Origin: a virus
Taxonomy: Duplodnaviria > Heunggongvirae > Uroviricota > Caudoviricetes
IMG/VR virus record: IMGVR_UViG_2563366822_000014
DNA: 21,709 nucleotides
Direction: 5' to 3' (one strand)
Each line of letters opens with the position of its first letter. The first letter of the stretch is position 1. A program made the position numbers and the translations under genes. Below the pieces are notes generated by a model that saw only the letters and a program-made list of their open reading frames with translations, searched no databases and had not been told where the DNA came from. Shown here piece by piece: positions 1 through 19,566 of the stretch.

Positions 1-300
1 ATGACAAAAACAGTATCAACCAGTAAAAAACCCCGTAAACAGCATTCGCCTGAATTTCGCAGTGAAGCCCTGAAGCTTGCTGAACGCATCGGTGTTACTG
101 CCGCAGCCCGTGAACTCAGCCTGTATGAATCACAGCTCTACAACTGGCGCAGTAAACAGCAAAATCAGCAGACGTCTTCTGAACGTGAACTGGAGATGTC
201 TACCGAGATTGCACGTCTCAAACGCCAGCTGGCAGAACGGGATGAAGAGCTGGCTATCCTCCAAAAGGCCGCGACATACTTCGCGAAGCGCCTGAAATGA
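1..300 (+). CDS. insE: IS3 transposase OrfA (helix-turn-helix DNA-binding subunit)
   Basis: 99-aa [56 protein letters not shown]... recognised as IS3 OrfA; leucine-zipper-like C-terminus. Confidence 0.9.
264..267 (+). other. candidate -1 programmed ribosomal frameshift site (A AAG in CCA AAA GGC) joining orfA to orfB
   Basis: A_AAG at 264-267 lies in the orfA/orfB overlap; in the orfA frame it reads CAA AAG, in the orfB frame AAA GGC. The motif is as I recall it for IS3; the downstream structure was not evaluated. Confidence 0.5.
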
Positions 301-1163
301 AGTATGTCTTTATTGAAAAACATCAGGCTGAGTTCAGCATCAAAGCAATGTGCCGCGTGCTCCGGGTGGCCCGCAGCGGCTGGTATACGTGGTGTCAGCG
401 GCGGACAAGGATAAGCACGCGTCAGCAGTTCCGCCAACACTGCGACAGCGTTGTCCTCGCGGCTTTTACCCGGTCAAAACAGCGTTACGGTGCCCCACGC
501 CTGACGGATGAACTGCGTGCTCAGGGTTACCCCTTTAACGTAAAAACCGTGGCGGCAAGCCTGCGCCGTCAGGGACTGAGGGCAAAGGCCTCCCGGAAGT
601 TCAGCCCGGTCAGCTACCGCGCACACGGCCTGCCAGTGTCAGAAAATCTGTTGGAGCAGGATTTTTACGCCAGTGGCCCGAACCAGAAGTGGGCAGGAGA
701 CATCACGTACTTACGTACAGATGAAGGCTGGCTGTATCTGGCAGTGGTCATTGACCTGTGGTCACGTGCCGTTATTGGCTGGTCAATGTCACCACGCATG
801 ACGGCGCAACTGGCCTGCGATGCCCTGCAGATGGCGCTGTGGCGGCGTAAGAGGCCCCGGAACGTTATCGTTCACACGGACCGTGGAGGCCAGTACTGTT
901 CAGCAGATTATCAGGCGCAACTGAAGCGGCATAATCTGCGTGGAAGTATGAGCGCAAAAGGTTGCTGCTACGATAATGCCTGCGTGGAAAGCTTCTTTCA
1001 TTCGCTGAAAGTGGAATGTATCCATGGAGAACACTTTATCAGCCGGGAAATAATGCGGGCAACGGTGTTTAATTATATCGAATGTGATTACAATCGGTGG
1101 CGGCGGCACAGTTGGTGTGGCGGCCTCAGTCCGGAACAATTTGAAAACCAGAACCTCGCTTAG
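297..1163 (+). CDS. insF: IS3 transposase OrfB (DDE catalytic domain), normally expressed as OrfAB fusion by -1 frameshift
   Basis: 288-aa ORF in -1 frame relative to orfA; contains DDE-type integrase motifs (..[26 protein letters not shown].., ..HTDRGGQY.., ..[10 protein letters not shown]..). Confidence 0.9.
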
Positions 1164-1193
1164 GCCTGTGTCCATATTACGTGGGTAGGATCA

Positions 1194-1354
1194 TCTTAGT
1201 TATTGATGGTAAGGTCTGGCGAACGGTGTATTACCGGTTCGCTACCAAGGAAGAACGGGAAGGAAAGGTGAGCACGAATCTGATTTTCAAGGAGTGTCGC
1301 CAGAGTGCCGCGATGAAGCGGGTGTTGGCATTTTATCGCGGCAATTTTCAATAG
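1194..1354 (+). pseudogene. ren: 3' remnant of a lambda ren-like gene truncated by the IS3 insertion
   Basis: Frame beginning at the IS3 junction translates to LVIDGKVWRTVYYRFATKEEREGKVSTNLIFKECRQSAAMKRVLAFYRGNFQ*, which matches my recollection of the C-terminus of lambda Ren (..GKVWRTVYYRFATREEREGK..SAAMKRVLA..). No start codon; the 5' part is displaced by IS3. Confidence 0.6.
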
Positions 1355-1391
1355 ACTATGTACATAAAAATATCATTTTTTTAATACATGT

Positions 1392-1583
1392 CTAATTATT
1401 GGACGAAATTGGTTTTTGCTTTGGTTTAGTTAGCCTAGCAATCAAGCCAGAGGCAATAATGATGATCCAAGCAATTTGATGCAATGCTACTCCAATATAA
1501 GAACCTTTATAGATAATAAAGGCATAGATCGCTAGAAACGAAATAAATATCCATAACGAAAGTTGATAAATTTTGGCGCGCAT
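1392..1583 (-). CDS. hypothetical small membrane protein (two predicted TM helices)
   Basis: ORF on minus strand; ATG at 1583 gives 63 aa MRAKIYQLSLWIFISFLAIYAFIIYKGSYIGVALHQIAWIIIIASGLIARLTKPKQKPISSNN with two hydrophobic stretches and a basic tail. AT-rich, weak RBS; the ORF track start (1598) is a TTG. Confidence 0.35.
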   Translation of the reverse strand: MRAKIYQLSLWIFISFLAIYAFIIYKGSYIGVALHQIAWIIIIASGLIARLTKPKQKPISSNN

Positions 1584-1839
1584 ATTTAATCCAATCAATC
1601 AGAAAGACGAGTAATCATAGAGGTACTATCACCCGGGTAACTATTGCTATTATGAACGGATAGGATAGAGGCTTCAATAACATATGCATCAAGTATGATG
1701 GAATATGTAGGTGAAAATGACTTGTGTCAAATTTGTGGAAATGAGTACCATGTTTCTCTGAAATTGATGTCGTTAATGGCTAGTGATAGTGAACTTTTTT
1801 ACTTTATAATTCCTTTGGTTATAACAATAAGGTAAATTT

Positions 1840-2400
1840 ATGAAGAAGATAATATTATTAGCCATGATTATTGGTTCTTTAACAGGTTGCGCTAGTGTGC
1901 CACCATTGAATTTTTCAACACCTAACGTGGGAGTTAGCCAGAAAAAAATAGATGCTGAAATTAAGTCATTAACGGTATCACTTGCTCGTCCAGATGAGCA
2001 GAAAGGGGATATCACTGCTGGTATGGAGGCTATAACTCCAATTTGGCGTGAATCTTTGCAGGAAGCACTCGACCGAATGACTATTTTTCGTGATAGTTCA
2101 CCAAATACGGTTAGCTTAAATGTTAAAGTGTTGGCTCTTGACGTTCCTGCTTTTGGTGTTTCAATGACAACTAAAGCAATTGCAAGGTATGAAATAATCA
2201 ACCGTGCGAATGGTGATATTATATATACGCAGGATATTGAGTCTACCGGTACTGTTCCAGCCAGTTACGCATTCTACGGTATTGTTCGAGCACGCGAATC
2301 TGTTAATCGCGCGGTGCAAAACAACATAACGCAGTTCTTGCAAGCATTAGAAAGTGTTGATCTTTCTCGTCCAATGTTTCCTGTTAGGGTAGCTAAATGA
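1840..2400 (+). CDS. putative lipoprotein (186 aa), unknown function
   Basis: N-terminal signal peptide with lipobox MKKIILLAMIIGSLTGC|AS; good spacing after an AT-rich leader; stop overlaps the next gene start (ATGA at 2397-2400). AT-rich codon usage differs from neighbouring phage genes. Confidence 0.8.
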   Translation: MKKIILLAMIIGSLTGCASVPPLNFSTPNVGVSQKKIDAEIKSLTVSLARPDEQKGDITAGMEAITPIWRESLQEALDRMTIFRDSSPNTVSLNVKVLALDVPAFGVSMTTKAIARYEIINRANGDIIYTQDIESTGTVPASYAFYGIVRARESVNRAVQNNITQFLQALESVDLSRPMFPVRVAK

Positions 2401-2849
2401 AGCGATTATTCGTAATTGCTCCACTCTTAGTGTTGGTTGGATGCGCACAAAATATATCGCCAAATAGTTATTCTGTTGGCTCTGTGGGCATGGTTAATCG
2501 AACTATCGCTGGTACAGTTATTAGTGCTAGGGGGGTTGATATCAGTGGGACTTCCGCGTTAGGCGGGACTGCTGGGGCTGCCGTGGGGGCAACCGCTGGT
2601 TCTGCGCTTGGTGGGGGAGTTCGTTCTAATATCGTTGGTGCCGTTGGTGGTGCAGTCATTGGTGGTATTGCCGGGGCAGCAATCGAATCTTCAGCAACAA
2701 AACAAACAGGCATGGAATATGTTGTCGAAACTGAGAATGGGAATTTAATGACCATTGTTCAAGGCAAAGATCCGTTATTTACTCAAGGAAGTAAGGTCCT
2801 TGTTTTATACGGAAACCCTTCTCGCATAATAACAGACCCGCGTCACTAA
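2397..2849 (+). CDS. SlyB/Pcp-like outer-membrane lipoprotein with glycine-zipper segment (150 aa)
   Basis: Lipobox LLVLVGC|AQN, followed by Gly/Ala-rich zipper (GGTAGAAVGATAGSALGGGVRSNIVGAVGGAVIGGIAGAAI) and a C-terminal beta-rich tail, the same architecture as E. coli SlyB as I recall it. Confidence 0.8.
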   Translation: MKRLFVIAPLLVLVGCAQNISPNSYSVGSVGMVNRTIAGTVISARGVDISGTSALGGTAGAAVGATAGSALGGGVRSNIVGAVGGAVIGGIAGAAIESSATKQTGMEYVVETENGNLMTIVQGKDPLFTQGSKVLVLYGNPSRIITDPRH

Positions 2850-2941
2850 CATACCTTTTGATTTTGTAAAATCAATTCGTAATAATAAAGTCATCGGAGC
2901 TTGAACAACTCCGGTGACTTCTGCGCTAAACGGGGACGTTT

Positions 2942-3043
2942 ATGCGCACATACAATCCAAACTCTCTTCTCCCTTCACAGATGCAGAAATGCACCTGCGA
3001 TTTTTTGCATCCAGCGTCTGACCTCTGCGGAGGTGAAGCGTGA
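2942..3043 (+). CDS. ylcH: small protein YlcH-like (33 aa)
   Basis: ATG at 2942 encodes [33 protein letters not shown], and the stop overlaps the ybcN GTG start; matches my recollection of the DLP12 ylcH position and size. Small ORF, so moderate confidence. Confidence 0.45.
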
Positions 3044-3495
3044 ACCTACCACAAGATGGCATCAAACTGCATCGCGGTAACTTCACCGCTATCGGCCAGC
3101 AGATCCAGCCTTATCTGGAGGACGGAAAATGCTTTCGCATGGTGCTTAAACCGTGGCGTGAGAAACGCAGTCTTTCCCAGAATGCACTCAGCCACATGTG
3201 GTACAGCGAAATCAGTGAATACCTCATCAGCAGGGGGAAATCGTTCGCTACCGCAGCATGGGTAAAAGATGCTCTCAAACACACATACCTCGGTTATGAA
3301 ACCAAGGACCTGGTTGATGTCGTAACCGGCGAAATCACTACTATCCAGTCGTTACGCCATACTTCCGATCTTGATACCGGAGAGATGTATGTCTTCCTGT
3401 GTAAGGTTGAAGCCTGGGCGATGAATATTGGCTGCCACCTGACTATTCCGCAGAGCTGCGAGTTCCAGCTGCTGCGCGACAAGCAGGAGGCGTAA
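3040..3495 (+). CDS. ybcN: NinB/Orf-family recombination mediator homolog (DLP12 YbcN-like)
   Basis: 151-aa ORF (GTG start) [61 protein letters not shown]... recognised as YbcN; position immediately upstream of ninE. Confidence 0.9.
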
Positions 3496-3665
3496 TGGCT
3501 ACACCGCTTATTCGTGTCATGAACGGACACATCTACAGAGTACCAAATCGTCGTAAGCGTAAGCCTGAGCTGAAGCCATCCGAAATACCAACACTGCTCG
3601 GATATACCGCTAGCCTGGTTGATAAAAAATGGTTGCGACTGGCAGCAAGGAGGAATCATGGCTGA
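3495..3665 (+). CDS. ninE: NinE-like protein (56 aa)
   Basis: ATG at 3495 overlaps the ybcN stop; translation [56 protein letters not shown]; basic small protein in the canonical nin-region position. Confidence 0.75.
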   Translation: MATPLIRVMNGHIYRVPNRRKRKPELKPSEIPTLLGYTASLVDKKWLRLAARRNHG

Positions 3666-3948
3666 TTTGAGAAAAGCAGCGCGTGGTCGGGAATGCCAGG
3701 TAAGAATCACTGGCGTATGTAATGGCAACCCTGAAACGTCTGTACTGGCACATATCCGGCTGGCTGGATTGTGCGGTACCGGTATCAAACCGCCAGACCT
3801 GATTGCCACCATTGCATGTTCTGCCTGCCACGACGAAATCGACCGCCGCACACATTTTGTCGATGCTGCATATGCAAAAGAATGCGCGCTGGAAGGTATG
3901 GCGAGAACACAGGTTATCTGGCTGAAAGAGGGGGTTATTAAGGCGTGA
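3658..3948 (+). CDS. ybcO: YbcO-like (DUF1364) putative nuclease of the nin region
   Basis: ATG at 3658 gives 96 aa [64 protein letters not shown]...; Cys-rich metal-binding pattern; overlaps the ninE stop. The ORF-track start at 3619 is rejected as an upstream extension. Confidence 0.85.
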
Positions 3949-4307
3949 ATACCTACAGTATCACATTACCCTGGCCTCCGAGCAATAATCGCTATTACCG
4001 CCATAATCGCGGGCGCACGCACGTCAGTGCAGAGGGGCAGGCATACCGCGATAACGTCGCCCGAATCATTAAAAGCGCAATGCTGGATATCGGCCTGGCT
4101 ATGCCTGTGAAAATCCGCATTGAGTGCCACATGCCGGATCGCCGTCGCCGTGACCTGGATAATCTGCAAAAAGCCGCTTTTGACGCACTCACTAAAGCAG
4201 GTTTCTGGCTGGATGATGCTCAGGTCGTTGATTACCGCGTTGTGAAGATGCCTGTTACCAAAGGTGGGAGGCTGGAACTGACCATCACCGAAATGGGGAA
4301 TGAATGA
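3945..4307 (+). CDS. rusA: RusA Holliday-junction resolvase
   Basis: 120-aa [46 protein letters not shown]... recognised as RusA; start overlaps the ybcO stop (ATGA). Confidence 0.95.
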
Positions 4308-4444
4308 TATTTGAGTTTAATATAGCAGAACTTCTTCGCCACCGCTGGGGGCGTCTGCGCTTATATCGTTTCCCCGGTTCTGTTTTGACCGATTACCGAA
4401 TACTGAAGAATTACGCCAAAACCCTGACAGGAGCAGGAGTATGA
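4304..4444 (+). CDS. ylcG: YlcG-like small protein (46 aa)
   Basis: ATG at 4304 overlaps the rusA stop; [46 protein letters not shown]; matches recalled DLP12 gene order rusA-ylcG-quuD. Confidence 0.55.
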
Positions 4445-4529
4445 AGTCAGAGATAACAATCAACTAATACTGTTTTATTGATTTTTGCTTGTAATTGGCG
4501 TTCTGGTCTGATTTTTGTGGAGTAAGTTG

Positions 4530-4913
4530 ATGCGTGATATTCAGATGGTTCTTGAGCGTTGGGGAGCGTGGGCGGCTAATAATCATGAAGATGTGACCTG
4601 GTCGTCCATTGCCGCCGGTTTTAAGGGATTAATTCCTTCAAAAGTAAAATCTCGCCCGCAATGTTGTGACGATGACGCGATGATCATTTGCGGGTGCATG
4701 GCCCGTCTGAAAAAGAACAACAGCGATTTGCACGATTTATTAGTAGATTATTATGTAGTCGGTATGACATTCATGTCACTGGCAGGTAAGCATTGCTGCT
4801 CTGATGGTTATATCGGGAAAAGGTTACAAAAGGCTGAGGGCATAATTGAAGGGATGTTAATGGCATTAGATATCCGGTTAGAGATGGATATCGTTGTTAA
4901 TAACTCTAATTAA
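4530..4913 (+). CDS. quuD: late-gene antiterminator Q (DLP12 QuuD-type, 127 aa)
   Basis: ATG at 4530 gives [62 protein letters not shown]...; Cys-rich zinc-binding pattern; sits between the nin region and the lysis genes. The ORF-track TTG start at 4515 is rejected. Confidence 0.85.
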
Positions 4914-4940
4914 TACGCCAATTATTTACTAAAAGTTATT

Positions 4941-4964
4941 AAAAATGGGGCGTTGAAACGCCCC
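4941..4964 (-). terminator. intrinsic terminator-like hairpin for minus-strand transcripts (downstream of nmpC)
   Basis: Perfect 6-bp GC stem GGGGCG/CGCCCC with 6-nt loop at 4947-4964; on the minus strand it is followed by ATTTTT (4941-4946). On the plus strand it is followed by A-rich sequence, so it is not a plus-strand terminator. Confidence 0.5.
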
Positions 4965-5052
4965 CAAAAATAAAGGGTAATATATAACAGAAGGTTTGTA
5001 TAGTTAGAAGCAAGGTTGTGCTTCTAAAGGAAGTGGCTTGAGGGAGCCACTT

Positions 5053-5086
5053 ATATGTTGGGGAGGCAAAGCCTCCCACAACATAT
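5053..5086. terminator. long stem-loop immediately 3' of the nmpC stop (3' stabiliser or terminator candidate)
   Basis: About 15 bp stem (5053-5067 with 5071-5086), one bulged A, 3-nt loop; followed on the + strand by CTTTT. The strand of action is not resolvable from sequence alone. Confidence 0.4.
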
Positions 5087-5101
5087 CTTTTAGTAATCAA
5101 A

Positions 5102-6184
5102 TTAGAACTGGTAAACCATACCTACAGCAACGATATCATCGGTAGCAACGCCAGATGCTTTCGTGAAATCGCTCTTATCAATCAGGTTGATTTTGTAGTC
5201 AACAAAAGTGGACATATTTTTGTTGAAGTAATAGGTTGCACCTACATCAACATATTCAACCAGGTCCTGATCACCCCAAACACCCAAGTCTTTTCCTTTA
5301 GAATGCAGGTAAGCAACGGATGGACGCAGGCCGAAGTCGAACTGATATTGTGCAACAGCTTCGAAGTTTTGTGCTTTGTTGGCAATATGGTTATTACCAA
5401 AAACAGTCATGTTCTGGGTTTCAGAATAGGTGGTGGCCAGATAGATGTTGTTCGCATCATATTTCAGACCAGCTGCCCATACTTCAGCATTTTGACCAGA
5501 AGCATTCAGACCGTTGTTACCGTAGATAACCTGATTATTAGTGCGATCAGATTTAGCATAGGTTGCACCTACACCGAATCCTTCATACTCATAAGTAGTG
5601 GAGAAACCGAAACCATCACCATTAGCTTCAGTTACGTCAGTGCGGTCATTTTTACCCTGATACTGAGCAGCAAAGTTCAGACCATCAACCAGACCAAAGA
5701 AGTCGTTGTTACGATAAGTTGCAACACCAGTGGTGCGACCAGTCATGAACACATCTGTTTGAGTCCAAGTGTCACCACCGAATTCTGGCAGGACGTCAGT
5801 CCACGCACCGATGTCGTATGCTACACCGTAGTTACGGCCGTAATCGATGGAGCCGTAGTCACCGAATTTCAGGCCAGCGAAGGCAAGACGGGTTTTATCT
5901 TTGGAGGAACCTTGAGATTCAGCGCGGTTGCCTTTGAATTCATATTCCCACTGACCGAAACCAGTCAGTTGATCGTTGATTTGGGTTTCACCTTTGAAGC
6001 CAAGACGGGCATAAGTAGTATCACCATCATCTGCATCATTAGAGGAGAAGTAGTGCTTAGCATTAACTTTCCCGTACAGATCCAGCTTGTTACTGTCTTT
6101 ATTATAAATTTCAGCTGCCTGAGCAGACATCGCCATCAGTACTGATGCAGCTACAGCAGAAATTGCCACTGTTAATTTTTTCAT
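5102..6184 (-). CDS. nmpC: outer-membrane general porin, NmpC/OmpD type (intact, 360 aa incl. signal peptide)
   Basis: [26 protein letters not shown]|[24 protein letters not shown]... ending ...VAVGMVYQF with the classic porin C-terminal Phe; signal peptidase site AQA|AE; recognised as NmpC-like. Confidence 0.95.
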
Positions 6185-6771
6185 CGTGAGCCCTTTTTTT
6201 TGAACTATTATTAAAAAATGATGTCACTGCGCGATAAATATTCATCTAATCAATGTGATTATTTCAAGATGTAAGTTTTAGTTTCTCATTTAATTTGTGA
6301 AGTAGATCTCTATTTTTATCTGAACTTTTTCTATCGAAACCTATTTATGGCTCTTATTTGAACAAAAATAAACCTATTAGCTAATTTATATTAATGGCTG
6401 TTATTTATGGGGGGCTATAATTCGATGGTTTAATTTAAATTAACTAAAAATAACGCCGGAAATTATTTATTGGTTATTTGTTGAGGTTTTCTTATGTATT
6501 TGTGGTGGTGTTTTGAACACTCGGTAGCATTCTCATAAATATCATTCAGTGGTTTACGTACGTAAAAAATTGGTTATGCTGTTAAGAGTGGTTACTTCGT
6601 CACACAGCTTAAACCCGCCGTCGAGCTGGTTTTTCCATTTTTTGAGTCTCGATATTAGCTGATAACTCAATACCTGAGTTATTCACTGACTCCGAGTCTG
6701 TTACGTTTCTGCTTTTTTGCGATACGTTGTATTCCCTCAATTTACACCCGCTTTGTCTGCGAGGTGGGGTT
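6185..6771. promoter_or_regulatory. 587-bp AT-rich non-coding region: nmpC promoter/5'UTR (minus strand) and leader of the lysis operon (plus strand)
   Basis: No ORF over about 17 codons; strongly AT-rich with A/T tracts and short palindromes (6431-6444 ttaatttaaattaa; 6559-6568 tacgtacgta; 8-bp inverted repeat ataactca/tgagttat around 6664-6684). Promoter elements are not confidently placed. Confidence 0.5.
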
Positions 6772-6987
6772 ATGAAATCCATGGATAAGTTAACAACGGG
6801 TGTCGCCTATGGCACCTCAGCAGGTAGTGCCGGTTACTGGTTTTTACAGCTGCTCGATAAAGTCACGCCCTCACAGTGGGCAGCAATAGGTGTGCTGGGT
6901 AGCCTGGTATTTGGCCTGCTGACGTACCTGACAAACCTTTATTTCAAGATTAAAGAAGATAAGCGCAAGGCTGCGAGAGGTGAATAA
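6772..6987 (+). CDS. essD: class II holin / pinholin (S21-like) with dual-start motif
   Basis: ATG at 6772 gives 71 aa [71 protein letters not shown]; Met1-Lys2-Ser3-Met4 dual start, two TM segments, charged C-terminus. The ORF-track TTG start at 6727 is rejected. Confidence 0.9.
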
Positions 6988-7484
6988 TGCCTCCATCATT
7001 ACGAAAAGCCGTTGCTGCTGCTATTGGTGGCGGAGCAATTGCTATAGCATCAGTGTTAATCACTGGCCCAAGTGGTAACGATGGTCTGGAAGGTGTCAGC
7101 TACATACCATACAAAGATATTGTTGGTGTATGGACCGTATGTCACGGGCATACAGGAAAAGACATCATGCTCGGTAAAACGTATACCAAAGCAGAATGCA
7201 AAGCACTCTTGAATAAAGACCTTGCCACTGTCGCCAGACAAATTAACCCATACATCGAAGTCGATATACCGGAAACAACGCGCGGCGCTCTTTACTCATT
7301 CGTTTACAACGTGGGTGCTGGCAATTTCAGAACATCGACGCTTCTTCGCAAAATAAACCAGGGCGATATCAAAGGCGCATGTGATCAGTTACGTCGCTGG
7401 ACATATGCTGGCGGTAAGCAATGGAAAGGTCTCATGACTCGTCGTGAGATTGAGCGTGAAATCTGTTTGTGGGGTCAGCAATGA
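6987..7484 (+). CDS. rrrD: SAR endolysin (T4-lysozyme-type muramidase, R21-like)
   Basis: 165-aa ORF; N-terminal Gly/Ala-rich weakly hydrophobic signal-anchor-release segment ([20 protein letters not shown]), then E35 ... D44 ... T50 spacing typical of the lysozyme catalytic triad; start overlaps the holin stop. Confidence 0.95.
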
Positions 7485-7942
7485 ACAGAGTAACCGCGAT
7501 TATCTCCGCTCTGGTTATCTGCATCATCGTCTGCCTGTCATGGGCTGTTAATCATTACCGTGATAACGCCATTACCTATAAAGCCCAGCGCGACAAAAAT
7601 GCCAAAGAACTGAAGCTGGCGAACGCGGCAATTACTGACATGCAGATGCGTCAGCGTGATGTTGCTGCGCTCGATGCAAAATACACGAAGGAGTTAGCTG
7701 ATGCGAAAGCTGAAAATGATGCTCTGCGTGATGATGTTGCCGCTGGTCGTCGTCGGTTGCACATCAAAGCAGTCTGTCAGTCAGTGCGTGAAGCCACCAC
7801 CGCCTCCGGCGTGGATAATGCAGCCTCCCCCCGACTGGCAGACACCGCTGAACAGGATTATTTCACCCTCAGAGAGAGGCTGATCACTATGCAAAAACAA
7901 CTGGAAGGAACCCAGAAGTATATTAATGAGCAGCGCAGATAG
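7481..7942 (+). CDS. rzpD: i-spanin (Rz-like inner-membrane spanin)
   Basis: ATG at 7481 overlapping the rrrD stop; [55 protein letters not shown]... with N-terminal TM and coiled-coil periplasmic domain. Confidence 0.9.
7701..7883 (+). CDS. rzoD: o-spanin (Rz1-like outer-membrane lipoprotein) embedded in +1 frame within rzpD
   Basis: 60-aa [23 protein letters not shown]|[40 protein letters not shown] with lipobox and proline-rich body, entirely inside the Rz gene in another frame. Confidence 0.85.
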
Positions 7943-7973: not shown

Positions 7974-8267
7974 TTATTGTGAGCAATACACACGCGCTTC
8001 CAGCGGAGTATAAATGCCTAAAGTAATAAAACCGAGCAATCCATTTACGAATGTTTGCTGGGTTTCTGTTTTAACAACATTTTCTGCGCCGCCACAAATT
8101 TTGGCTGCATCAACAGTTTTCTCCTGTCCAATTCCCGAAACGAAGAAGTGATGGGTGATGGTTTCCTTTGGTGTTACTGCTGTCGGTTTGTTTCCAACAG
8201 TAAACGTCTGTTGAGCACATCCTGTAATAAGCATTGCCAGAGCGGCAGAAAACAACATTTTTTTCAT
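7974..8267 (-). CDS. borD: Bor lipoprotein (serum-resistance, Iss-family)
   Basis: ATG at 8267 gives 97 aa MKKMLFSAALAMLITGC|AQQTFTVGNKPTAVTPKETITHHFFVSGIGQEKTVDAAKICGGAENVVKTETQQTFVNGLLGFITLGIYTPLEARVYCSQ; lipobox; lambda-like position after the spanins on the opposite strand. The ORF-track start at 8315 is rejected. Confidence 0.9.
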   Translation of the reverse strand: MKKMLFSAALAMLITGCAQQTFTVGNKPTAVTPKETITHHFFVSGIGQEKTVDAAKICGGAENVVKTETQQTFVNGLLGFITLGIYTPLEARVYCSQ

Positions 8268-18727: not shown

Positions 18728-19150
18728 ATGTTCCTGAAAACCGAATCATTTGAACATAACGGTGTGACCGTCACGCTTTCTGAACTGTCAGCCCTGCAGC
18801 GTATTGAGCATCTCGCCCTGATGAAACGACAGGCAGAACAGGCGGAGTCAGACAGCAACCGGAAGTTTACTGTGGAAGACGCCATCAGAACCGGCGCTTT
18901 TGTGGTGGCGATGTCCCTGTGGCATAACCATCCGCAGAAGACAAAGCTGCCTTCTATGAATGAAGCCGTTAAACAGATTGAGCAGGAAGTGCTTACCACC
19001 TGGCCCACGGAGGCAATTTCTCATGCTGAAAACGTGGTGTACCGGCTGTCCGGTATGTATGAGTTTGTGGTGAATGATGCTCCTGAACAGACAGAGGACG
19101 CCGGGCCTGCAGAGCCTGTTTCTGCGGGAAAGTGTTCGACGGTGAGCTGA
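18728..19150 (+). CDS. G: tail assembly chaperone gpG
   Basis: 140-aa ORF MFLKTESFEHNGVTVTLSELSALQRIEHLALMKRQAEQAESDSNRKFTVEDAIRTGAFVVAMSLWHNHPQK... Confidence 0.92.
   Translation: MFLKTESFEHNGVTVTLSELSALQRIEHLALMKRQAEQAESDSNRKFTVEDAIRTGAFVVAMSLWHNHPQKTKLPSMNEAVKQIEQEVLTTWPTEAISHAENVVYRLSGMYEFVVNDAPEQTEDAGPAEPVSAGKCSTVS
19126..19132 (+). other. programmed -1 frameshift slippery heptamer G GGA AAG producing the gpG-T fusion
   Basis: GGGAAAG at 19126-19132, in the G frame as G.GGA.AAG; a -1 slip puts ribosomes in the T frame (ORF 19132-19566), 20 nt before the G stop. Confidence 0.85.
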
Positions 19151-19566
19151 GTTTTGCCCTGAAACTGGCGCGAGAGATGGGGCGACCCGACTGGCGTGCC
19201 ATGCTTGCCGGGATGTCATCCACGGAGTATGCCGACTGGCACCGCTTTTACAGTACCCATTATTTTCATGATGTTCTGCTGGATATGCACTTTTCCGGGC
19301 TGACGTACACCGTGCTCAGCCTGTTTTTCAGCGATCCGGATATGCATCCGCTGGATTTCAGTCTGCTGAACCGGCGCGAGGCTGACGAAGAGCCTGAAGA
19401 TGATGTGCTGATGCAGAAAGCGGCAGGGCTTGCCGGAGGCGTTCGTTTTGGCCCGGACGGGAATGAAGTTATCCCCGCTTCCCCGGATGTGGCGGACATG
19501 ACGGAGGATGACGTAATGCTGATGACAGTATCAGAAGGGATCGCAGGAGGAGTCCGGTATGGCTGA
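19132..19566 (+). CDS. T: gpT portion of tail assembly chaperone (expressed only as G-T fusion via -1 frameshift)
   Basis: 144-aa -1 frame ORF overlapping the G 3' end, ...ELSFALKLAREMGRPDWRAMLAGMSSTEYADWHRFYSTHYFHDVLLDMHF...; no independent RBS is expected. Confidence 0.85.
   Translation: MFDGELSFALKLAREMGRPDWRAMLAGMSSTEYADWHRFYSTHYFHDVLLDMHFSGLTYTVLSLFFSDPDMHPLDFSLLNRREADEEPEDDVLMQKAAGLAGGVRFGPDGNEVIPASPDVADMTEDDVMLMTVSEGIAGGVRYG

Follow-up and report, generated by a model that had tools for sequence, protein, structure and literature searches.

Organization of the porin locus

The window, that is, the whole stretch of 21,709 nucleotides of viral DNA analysed here (IMG/VR record IMGVR_UViG_2563366822_000014), is judged from its sequence to be a DLP12-type lambda-like prophage. 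Between the gene for the late antiterminator Q and the lysis genes, which are on the plus strand, it contains a porin gene on the minus strand, as a preliminary description of this DNA had stated. The features of the region are collected in Table 1. The Q gene is annotated as quuD in near-identical genomes, where the names essD, rrrD and rzpD are likewise found for the lysis genes; rzoD, which is embedded in rzpD, is annotated solely in K-12. The lysis products are an S21-type (P21) holin (essD), an endolysin or lysozyme (rrrD) and an Rz spanin (rzpD).

Table 1. Features of the porin locus and its surroundings, in window coordinates
Feature	Position	Strand	Description
quuD, late antiterminator Q	4530–4913	+	127 aa; Q21/933W family; PF06530, E=8.5e-54
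Porin 3' UTR, ipeX region	4935–5101	-	About 167 nt; three stem-loops, then a predicted intrinsic terminator (stem 4964–4947 and U-run)
Candidate terminator of the Q transcript	5053–5093	+	GC-rich bulged hairpin, then AUAUCUUUU
Intact porin gene, nmpC/lc allele	5102–6184	-	360 aa; ORF, Pfam and solved-structure matches
Putative porin promoter PnmpC	6230–6267	-	By sequence inspection: -35 TTGAAA 6267–6262, -10 GAATAT 6243–6238, start near G 6232–6230
CRP (cAMP receptor protein) site upstream of the porin promoter	6293–6313		ATTTGTGAAGTAGATCTCTAT, identical to the annotation in PA-2 record J02580
Late promoter pR' (by homology)	6553–6587	+	-35 TTTACG 6553–6558, 16-nt spacer, -10 TATGCT 6575–6580, predicted start A6587
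Promoter-proximal hairpin and U5, candidate tR'	6605–6634	+	About +19 to +48 of the pR' transcript; weakened by T6627
Lysis cassette	6772–7942	+	essD 6772–6987 (PF04971), rrrD 6987–7484 (PF00959), rzpD 7481–7942 (PF03245)
bor/iss lipoprotein gene (serum-survival family)	7974–8267	-	Pfam Lambda_Bor; just after the spanin genes

The porin reading frame runs from ATG to TAA over 360 codons, with its stop codon at 5104–5102, and the frameshift or premature stop that might have been overlooked in the preliminary description is not present. The protein was also correctly described there as a full-length porin of the NmpC/OmpD type with a signal peptide and a terminal phenylalanine. Residues 29–360 match the Porin_1 profile (PF00267) end to end (positions 1–337 of 337) with E=3e-152 and 507 bits, against a cutoff of 23.7. 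Residues 24–360 align with the solved chains of OmpC, OmpK36 and OmpF, with E values down to 8e-136, and the solved chains of OmpK37 and PhoE likewise align over this span. A putative signal peptide of 23 residues (codons at 6184–6116) ends in A-x-A, with cleavage predicted before AEIYNK, and the same 23-residue stretch is annotated as the signal peptide in the PA-2 lc record J02580. This length fits, as it is at residue 24 that the mature solved porins start to align. The C terminus reads VGMVYQF, so that the terminal phenylalanine, which outer-membrane assembly requires, is present. The eyelet motif PEFGG of loop 3 is found within LPEFGGDTW and is invariant across the eight alleles compared. 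By its sequence, the protein is unambiguously a general bacterial porin of the NmpC/Lc type, and its homology to solved trimers, at E values of about 1e-135, suggests that it would form a trimer of 16-stranded β-barrels with a pore.

Comparison with other alleles and with K-12 nmpC

Strain 442/2 has an annotated porin, WP_000737272.1 (PGAP label 'ompC'), with which the porin of the window shares 100% identity; the porin of phage ev099 follows with 99.4%. The identity of the window protein to K-12 NmpC, with IS5 removed, is 91.9%, and the same value is obtained with the Lc porin of PA-2. The N-terminal 168 residues are nearly identical among the window porin, NmpC of DLP12 and Lc of PA-2. Annotation pipelines name the gene 'ompC' or 'OmpD', which masks its nature as prophage cargo.

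In K-12 MG1655, nmpC is an annotated pseudogene that is split by IS5B after codon 346, with a TTAG/CTAA target duplication. When IS5 and one copy of TTAG/CTAA are deleted, an ORF of 365 amino acids is regained. IS5 was not found in the window, and the alignment thus agrees with the earlier statement that the K-12 copy is disrupted by IS5 and the present copy intact. The IS5 target CTAA of K-12 reads CGAA in the window allele (within 5140–5160), a synonymous change of ACT to ACG. This change removes that particular IS5 target from the window copy.

The porin promoter and expression

The region upstream of the porin is AT-rich, and the GC content drops to 0.26–0.33 across 6050–6650 compared with about 0.50 in the flanking phage genes. 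The putative PnmpC stretch upstream of the porin is nearly invariant in seven relatives. In K-12, PnmpC is an active sigma70 promoter with a mapped G start, located within the 199 bp upstream of the ATG; it is strong enough for driving the IS5 transposase and is active even in K-12 with IS5 (PMC11677980). It is activated by Crp and repressed by OmpR, IHF and MprA, and RyhB targets the transcript (PMC11677980).

The K-12 strain NCM3722 has an intact nmpC, and there NmpC accounts for about 2% of the proteome and rises under carbon limitation, when it is the main porin of that strain; in an MG1655-derived strain with the interrupted nmpC, OmpC is more than 10-fold higher (PMC8144880). The nmpC genes of CFT073 are upregulated at 37 °C (PMC12890032). 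Going by these published data on other strains, the porin is very probably expressed from the prophage of the window, in line with the potential for expression from the lysogen that had been noted beforehand.

The late promoter probably lies beyond the porin gene

The position of the late promoter decides whether late transcripts would cross the porin gene. QuuD shares 79% identity with the 933W-type Q of Stx2 phage 06-3462. It also matches the solved structure of Q21, at E=7.6e-8, a relation that is only distant. In phage 21, the -35 element of pR' begins 7 bp after the Q stop codon, and next come the Q-binding repeats, the start site and tR'. When these repeats (ATTGAGCA/AATGAGCA) were sought after quuD, nothing similar was found there. 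Phage 21 was rejected as the model for the QuuD site; QuuD is distant from Q21, and the 933W subfamily, at 79% identity, is the right comparison.

With the porin–holin intergenic region as the query, more than 300 records of Stx phages were found to carry, at the 3' end of their Q gene, a block homologous to positions 6552–6634 of the window. The record of Stx2 phage 06-3462 annotates the aligned block as pR' with a terminator-like hairpin. In Stx phages, a constitutive pR' start has been mapped, and dRNA-seq with Term-seq gave a distance of 258 nt from pR' to tR' (PMC7547250). When the block is located in Sakai Sp5, the start that it predicts falls 22 nt past the Q stop codon, and the U-run of the terminator ends exactly 258 nt after that start, in agreement with the measured distance. 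The Sakai coordinates of the published study are offset by a constant 142 bp from the current RefSeq, and the start was checked through the 258-nt spacing.

The pR' block occurs once in the window. Positions 6551–6626 are invariant in seven relatives, and the flanks are variable. From the predicted start, essD is about 185 nt ahead and the porin ATG about 400 nt behind. By homology to the 933W-type pR', Q would load at 6553–6587. The two hexamers of the promoter are weak, and a consensus promoter scan of 4300–7000 listed neither PnmpC nor pR'; its only two hits, a number below that in shuffled sequences, both fall within quuD.

The porin gene therefore does not have the position of a Q-dependent late-operon gene, since it lies upstream of, and behind, the pR' start as placed by homology rather than by transcript mapping. 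The preliminary description had put the porin "inside the late operon" and had expected antisense interplay with late transcription either way, whether late transcripts read through the porin or the late promoter lies downstream of it. The sole pR' homologue, at 6553–6634 on the plus strand and thus beyond the porin 5' end at 6184, argues against the first statement. It also argues against the second, as late transcripts from a promoter at 6553–6587 would run away from the porin. The alternative in which the late promoter lies downstream of the porin is the one that the single homologue favours. The layout of SfII, where the block likewise stands between reverse cargo and a holin, and the published reporter fragment for the DLP12 lysis operon, which is built around a promoter ahead of essD (PMC7918800), point the same way. 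With pR' beyond the porin 5' end, PnmpC and pR' would stand back-to-back, about 300 bp apart and diverging, so that Q-modified late transcripts would never cross nmpC.

A perfect 14-bp palindrome, TTTACGTACGTAAA, at 6553–6566 overlaps the -35 element of the pR' homologue. At this position the Stx2 and Sakai phages have TTTACGATCGTAAA, in which the symmetry survives a two-base change of GTAC to GATC, and SfII retains just the inner 8 bp, GCGTACGC. That the symmetry is kept through this change hints at a binding site for a dimeric protein, and the palindrome is possibly a Q-binding element of the 933W/QuuD subfamily. The second 'CRP site' of the 1986 PA-2 record (AGTGGTTACTTCGTCACACAG) corresponds exactly to 6587–6607, the initial 21 nt of the transcript predicted from pR'. 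This site may belong to the pause and Q-loading region of the late promoter and not to porin regulation.

The pR'-proximal hairpin and the start of the lysis cassette

The hairpin that follows pR' is conserved in Stx phages, SfII and K-12, and is a candidate for tR'. The 3' end that has been mapped in Stx phages (tR') is at +258 and not at the conserved first hairpin (PMC7547250). Position 6627 is a T in the window, PA-2, Turner and ev099, and a G in K-12, 2G7b and mEp332. The predicted folding energy of 6605–6634 is -12.0 kcal/mol with the G of K-12 and -6.5 kcal/mol with the T of the window. The T, which is situated mid-stem, thus halves the predicted stability, and it creates an alternative CAGCU...AGCUG stem. 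According to these folds, T6627 could alter the basal read-through into the lysis genes.

A second predicted hairpin, at 6747–6775, covers the ribosome-binding site of essD and the first of its two starts (ATG 6772 and ATG 6781). This arrangement resembles the dual-start holin/antiholin control of S21 and lambda S.

The porin 3' UTR and the convergence with Q

The porin 3' UTR folds as RNA into four hairpins with -49.3 kcal/mol (z=-7.0), and a scan detected a terminator-like site on the minus strand within it. The region is 91–100% conserved in 36 phage records, including PA-2. It corresponds to ipeX, an RNA of 167 nt that is made within the porin transcript and is a repressor of OmpC (PMC12197685); according to published work, this part of the porin transcript lowers OmpC, and also OmpF, of the host. 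Scanned against Rfam at gathering thresholds, the whole window gave no match, and none for the ipeX region, so the assignment of the 3' UTR as ipeX rests on position, length, fold and the literature.

On the plus strand, positions 4960–5101 also form a stable predicted fold (-52.3 kcal/mol, z=-5.2). The hairpin at 5053–5093, which would terminate the Q transcript, was missed by the simple terminator scan because of its bulge. The Q and porin units converge, and their predicted terminators are staggered (4964–4947 on the minus strand and 5053–5093 on the plus strand), so that the 3' ends of the two transcripts would overlap by about 100–150 nt. From this arrangement, only the Q transcript would converge on the porin 3' UTR, and antisense porin RNA could arise only by read-through of early or Q transcripts.

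A probable self-contained porin cassette between Q and pR'

Taken together, we consider it likely, with a probability of roughly 80%, that the intact NmpC/Lc allele is a self-contained 'moron' in an E. coli prophage of the DLP12/PA-2 type, present as a cassette between Q and pR'. In this model, a cassette of about 1.64 kb (4914–6552) would have been inserted between the Q gene and the promoter that Q acts on, two elements that are adjacent in related phages: the -35 element of pR' overlaps the end of Q in 933W/Sakai-type phages, and the two are 1.64 kb apart here. A Crp-dependent sigma70 promoter belonging to the porin itself, in the AT-rich upstream region, would drive its transcription, and the unit would end at its own structured 3' UTR and terminator in the ipeX region. 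Of these moron features, the terminator is predicted and the promoter follows from homology to the mapped PnmpC of K-12. The low GC content across 6050–6650, which sets this region apart from the flanking phage genes, is a further feature of a moron. The prophage would make a general-diffusion porin of the outer membrane, and the ipeX part of the porin transcript would lower OmpC of the host. Late transcription would start near 6587 and leave the porin behind, proceeding rightward through essD-rrrD-rzpD to the head and tail genes. The sequence itself shows the intact reading frame, the porin family, the lack of IS5, the synteny, and the place and conservation of the pR' homologue; for the strain of the window, we infer promoter activity, the exact transcription starts and which of the hairpins would act as tR'.

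A tentative addition to this model, which we regard as doubtful, concerns the converging Q and porin units. In the lytic cycle, the antiterminated early transcript would pass the hairpins at 4947–5093, cross nmpC in the antisense direction and dampen the porin by collision or duplex RNA, and in the lysogen leaky termination of nmpC would give RNA antisense to Q. The staggered terminators, with 3' ends that overlap by about 100–150 nt, are in keeping with such read-through, and phage 21 provides a precedent in its annotated antisense promoter paQ inside Q. The strong hairpins on both strands, however, should stop unmodified polymerase, and the early region with N and the nut sites, on which antitermination of the early transcript would depend, is situated outside the window. 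Since the strongly transcribed porin unit converges on quuD and the predicted 3' ends overlap across the ipeX hairpins, it is conceivable, though very unlikely, that porin transcription in the lysogen restrains Q by interference or antisense RNA and that early read-through shuts the porin off at induction. If this were the case, the restraint of Q by the porin would act like the antisense promoter paQ of lambda and phage 21, but constitutively, and carbon status, through Crp, would be coupled to the threshold of lytic commitment. The convergence of the Q and porin transcripts as a regulatory device has a low probability.

The nature of the promoter upstream of essD is also viewed differently. 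Rueggeberg in 2015 reportedly assigned the essD promoter to RpoE and not to sigma70. The lysis cassette might accordingly be a domesticated host module, with an RpoE-dependent promoter upstream of essD that is helped by QuuD in place of a sigma70 pR'. We consider this unlikely, since the block is common to Stx phages with a mapped constitutive pR' start (PMC7547250) and is present in the plaque-forming phages Turner, mEp332 and ev099. On the other side, Q, RpoE and Hha are cited as regulators of the DLP12 lysis operon, and the promoter fragment used to report on it, -121 to +650, goes back to Rueggeberg 2015 (PMC7918800). IS3 is present in ren, so the prophage of the window may be partly defective. 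An RpoE-dependent essD promoter would still be positioned downstream of the porin.

The porin gene might be intact yet silent in the strain of the window and confer no phenotype, like the 'quiescent' nmpC that Prilipov is said to have described in E. coli B in 1998. Repression of PnmpC by OmpR, IHF and MprA, as reported for K-12, would be compatible with silence, as would the listing of the nmpC/essD intergenic region of K-12 as a 'promoter island' in the H-NS complex-formation table of one study, as far as that table goes (PMC3661553). This explanation is nevertheless quite improbable: expression is high in NCM3722 and CFT073 (PMC8144880, PMC12890032), PnmpC is active even in the K-12 strain that contains IS5 (PMC11677980), and both the promoter and the CRP site are kept in the window.

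It has also to be considered that the late promoter directly follows quuD, the position that it has in lambda, 21 and 933W, and that Q-modified polymerase runs antisense through the whole porin to essD. The end of Q adjoins or overlaps pR' in phage 21 and the Stx phages, the stretch 4914–5101 has AT-rich hexamers resembling a -10 element and a terminator-like hairpin on the plus strand that could mimic a pR'-tR' unit, and the viable phage 434B tolerates 2.3 kb of nmpC::IS5 between Q and S. These 188 bp, however, are without homology to any known pR', the scan of their plus strand was blank, the single pR' homologue is at 6553–6634, and in phage records the stretch always accompanies the porin gene (36 of 36 matches), as expected if it is the 3' UTR of the porin itself, which makes a promoter at this position highly improbable.

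Distribution of the Q, porin and holin arrangement

The stretch from Q through the reverse porin to the holin (window positions 4300–7200, 2.9 kb) is widespread. At least 80% of it is covered by one match in 2349 of 5426 complete E. coli genomes, a count that takes in some IS-interrupted copies, with pieces up to about 1.9 kb apart joined. The same coverage is reached in 35 phage records, among them that of PA-2 (J02580, 1986). Turner, mEp332 and ev099, which are isolated or induced phages, carry the stretch, and a viable recombinant of phage 434 (434B) that gained the nmpC::IS5 region of K-12 has the same layout.

The porin feature has been known since the mid-1980s from the literature on PA-2 lc and DLP12 nmpC, and from many annotated genomes. 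The intact porin gene, its site in the prophage, its orientation, the IS5 lesion of K-12, the Crp-dependent expression and the effect of ipeX are all published. Thousands of E. coli genomes share the arrangement, and it offers little that is biologically new.

Other features of the prophage

Positions 1–1193 of the window are the right-hand part of an IS3 element, 99.7% identical to IS3C of K-12, situated inside ren (1194–1360). The insertion is after about nt 133 of ren in the window and after about nt 91–93 in DLP12 of K-12. The two look like independent insertions about 40 bp apart, judging from these junctions.

A slot in the nin region (1840–2849, plus strand) contains a gene for a YajG-family lipoprotein of 186 amino acids, a name taken over from a related annotated genome, and a second gene for a protein of 150 amino acids with a weak glycine-zipper match. 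In DLP12 of K-12, this slot holds emrE-ylcJ-ybcK-ybcL-ybcM. The difference in content makes the slot a second cargo position. The bor/iss gene is a second reverse-oriented cargo gene and, unlike the porin, is situated within the path of the predicted late transcript. In the tail region, the assembly chaperone genes G and T overlap (18728–19566), with a lambda-type slippery sequence GGGAAAG near 19124–19130. These sequences are consistent with the known -1 frameshift that yields a G-T fusion.

Comparison with known systems

The closest system is nmpC of DLP12 (qsr') in K-12. The locus is the same, with ybcN-ninE-ybcO-rusA-ylcG-quuD, the reverse porin, essD-rrrD-rzpD and bor in this order, the flanks are 92–97% identical to the window at the DNA level, and the promoter region, the CRP site and the ipeX 3' UTR are the same. 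The K-12 gene is interrupted by IS5B, and the window allele is 5 residues shorter. The substitutions between the two proteins are clustered in a few short segments, which are probably surface loops. Unlike DLP12, the prophage of the window retains terminase, head and tail genes.

The Lc porin of PA-2 ('protein 2', J02580; Blasband, Marcotte, and Schnaitman 1986) is also encoded opposite to the lysis genes, and the PA-2 sequence agrees with the window in its CRP sites and 3' UTR, and even in having T in the hairpin next to pR'. PA-2 differs in having another allele in the variable segments and in being a free, inducible phage. In ev099, ev243, PhiR70_1, Turner, mEp332 and 2G7b, the whole 2.7-kb stretch from Q through the porin to the holin is 93–98% identical to the window, with no substantial difference. 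Their possession of the same stretch indicates that the arrangement works in viable phages.

The porins OmpC, OmpF and PhoE of E. coli and OmpK36 and OmpK37 of Klebsiella are homologous over the full length (E=1e-115 to 1e-136) and share PEFGG and the terminal phenylalanine. They differ in being encoded by chromosomal core genes with other regulation and diverged sequences.

The place of the cargo can be compared with two further phage groups. SfII has Q (same Pfam family, 43% identity), reverse cargo, the conserved pR' block and a holin in succession. There, the cargo consists of SfII_49 and SfII_50, two unrelated proteins, and the holin is of another class. The two reverse genes of SfII (194 and 340 amino acids; 3082–4696, minus strand) gave no significant match to a Pfam family. 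From these sequences, the slot between a QuuD-family Q and pR' appears to be a recurrent site for reverse cargo. The Stx phages of the 933W/Sakai type have the Q subfamily, the pR' block and the first hairpin in common with the window, and they also carry cargo between Q and the holin. Their stx and tRNA genes, however, are downstream of pR', on the same strand, and are co-transcribed under the control of Q, whereas the porin of the window is upstream of pR', on the opposite strand, with a putative promoter of its own. For the QuuD/933W subfamily of Q, the cargo slot would thus be the one between Q and pR', where reverse genes, unlike stx, would be insulated from late transcription.
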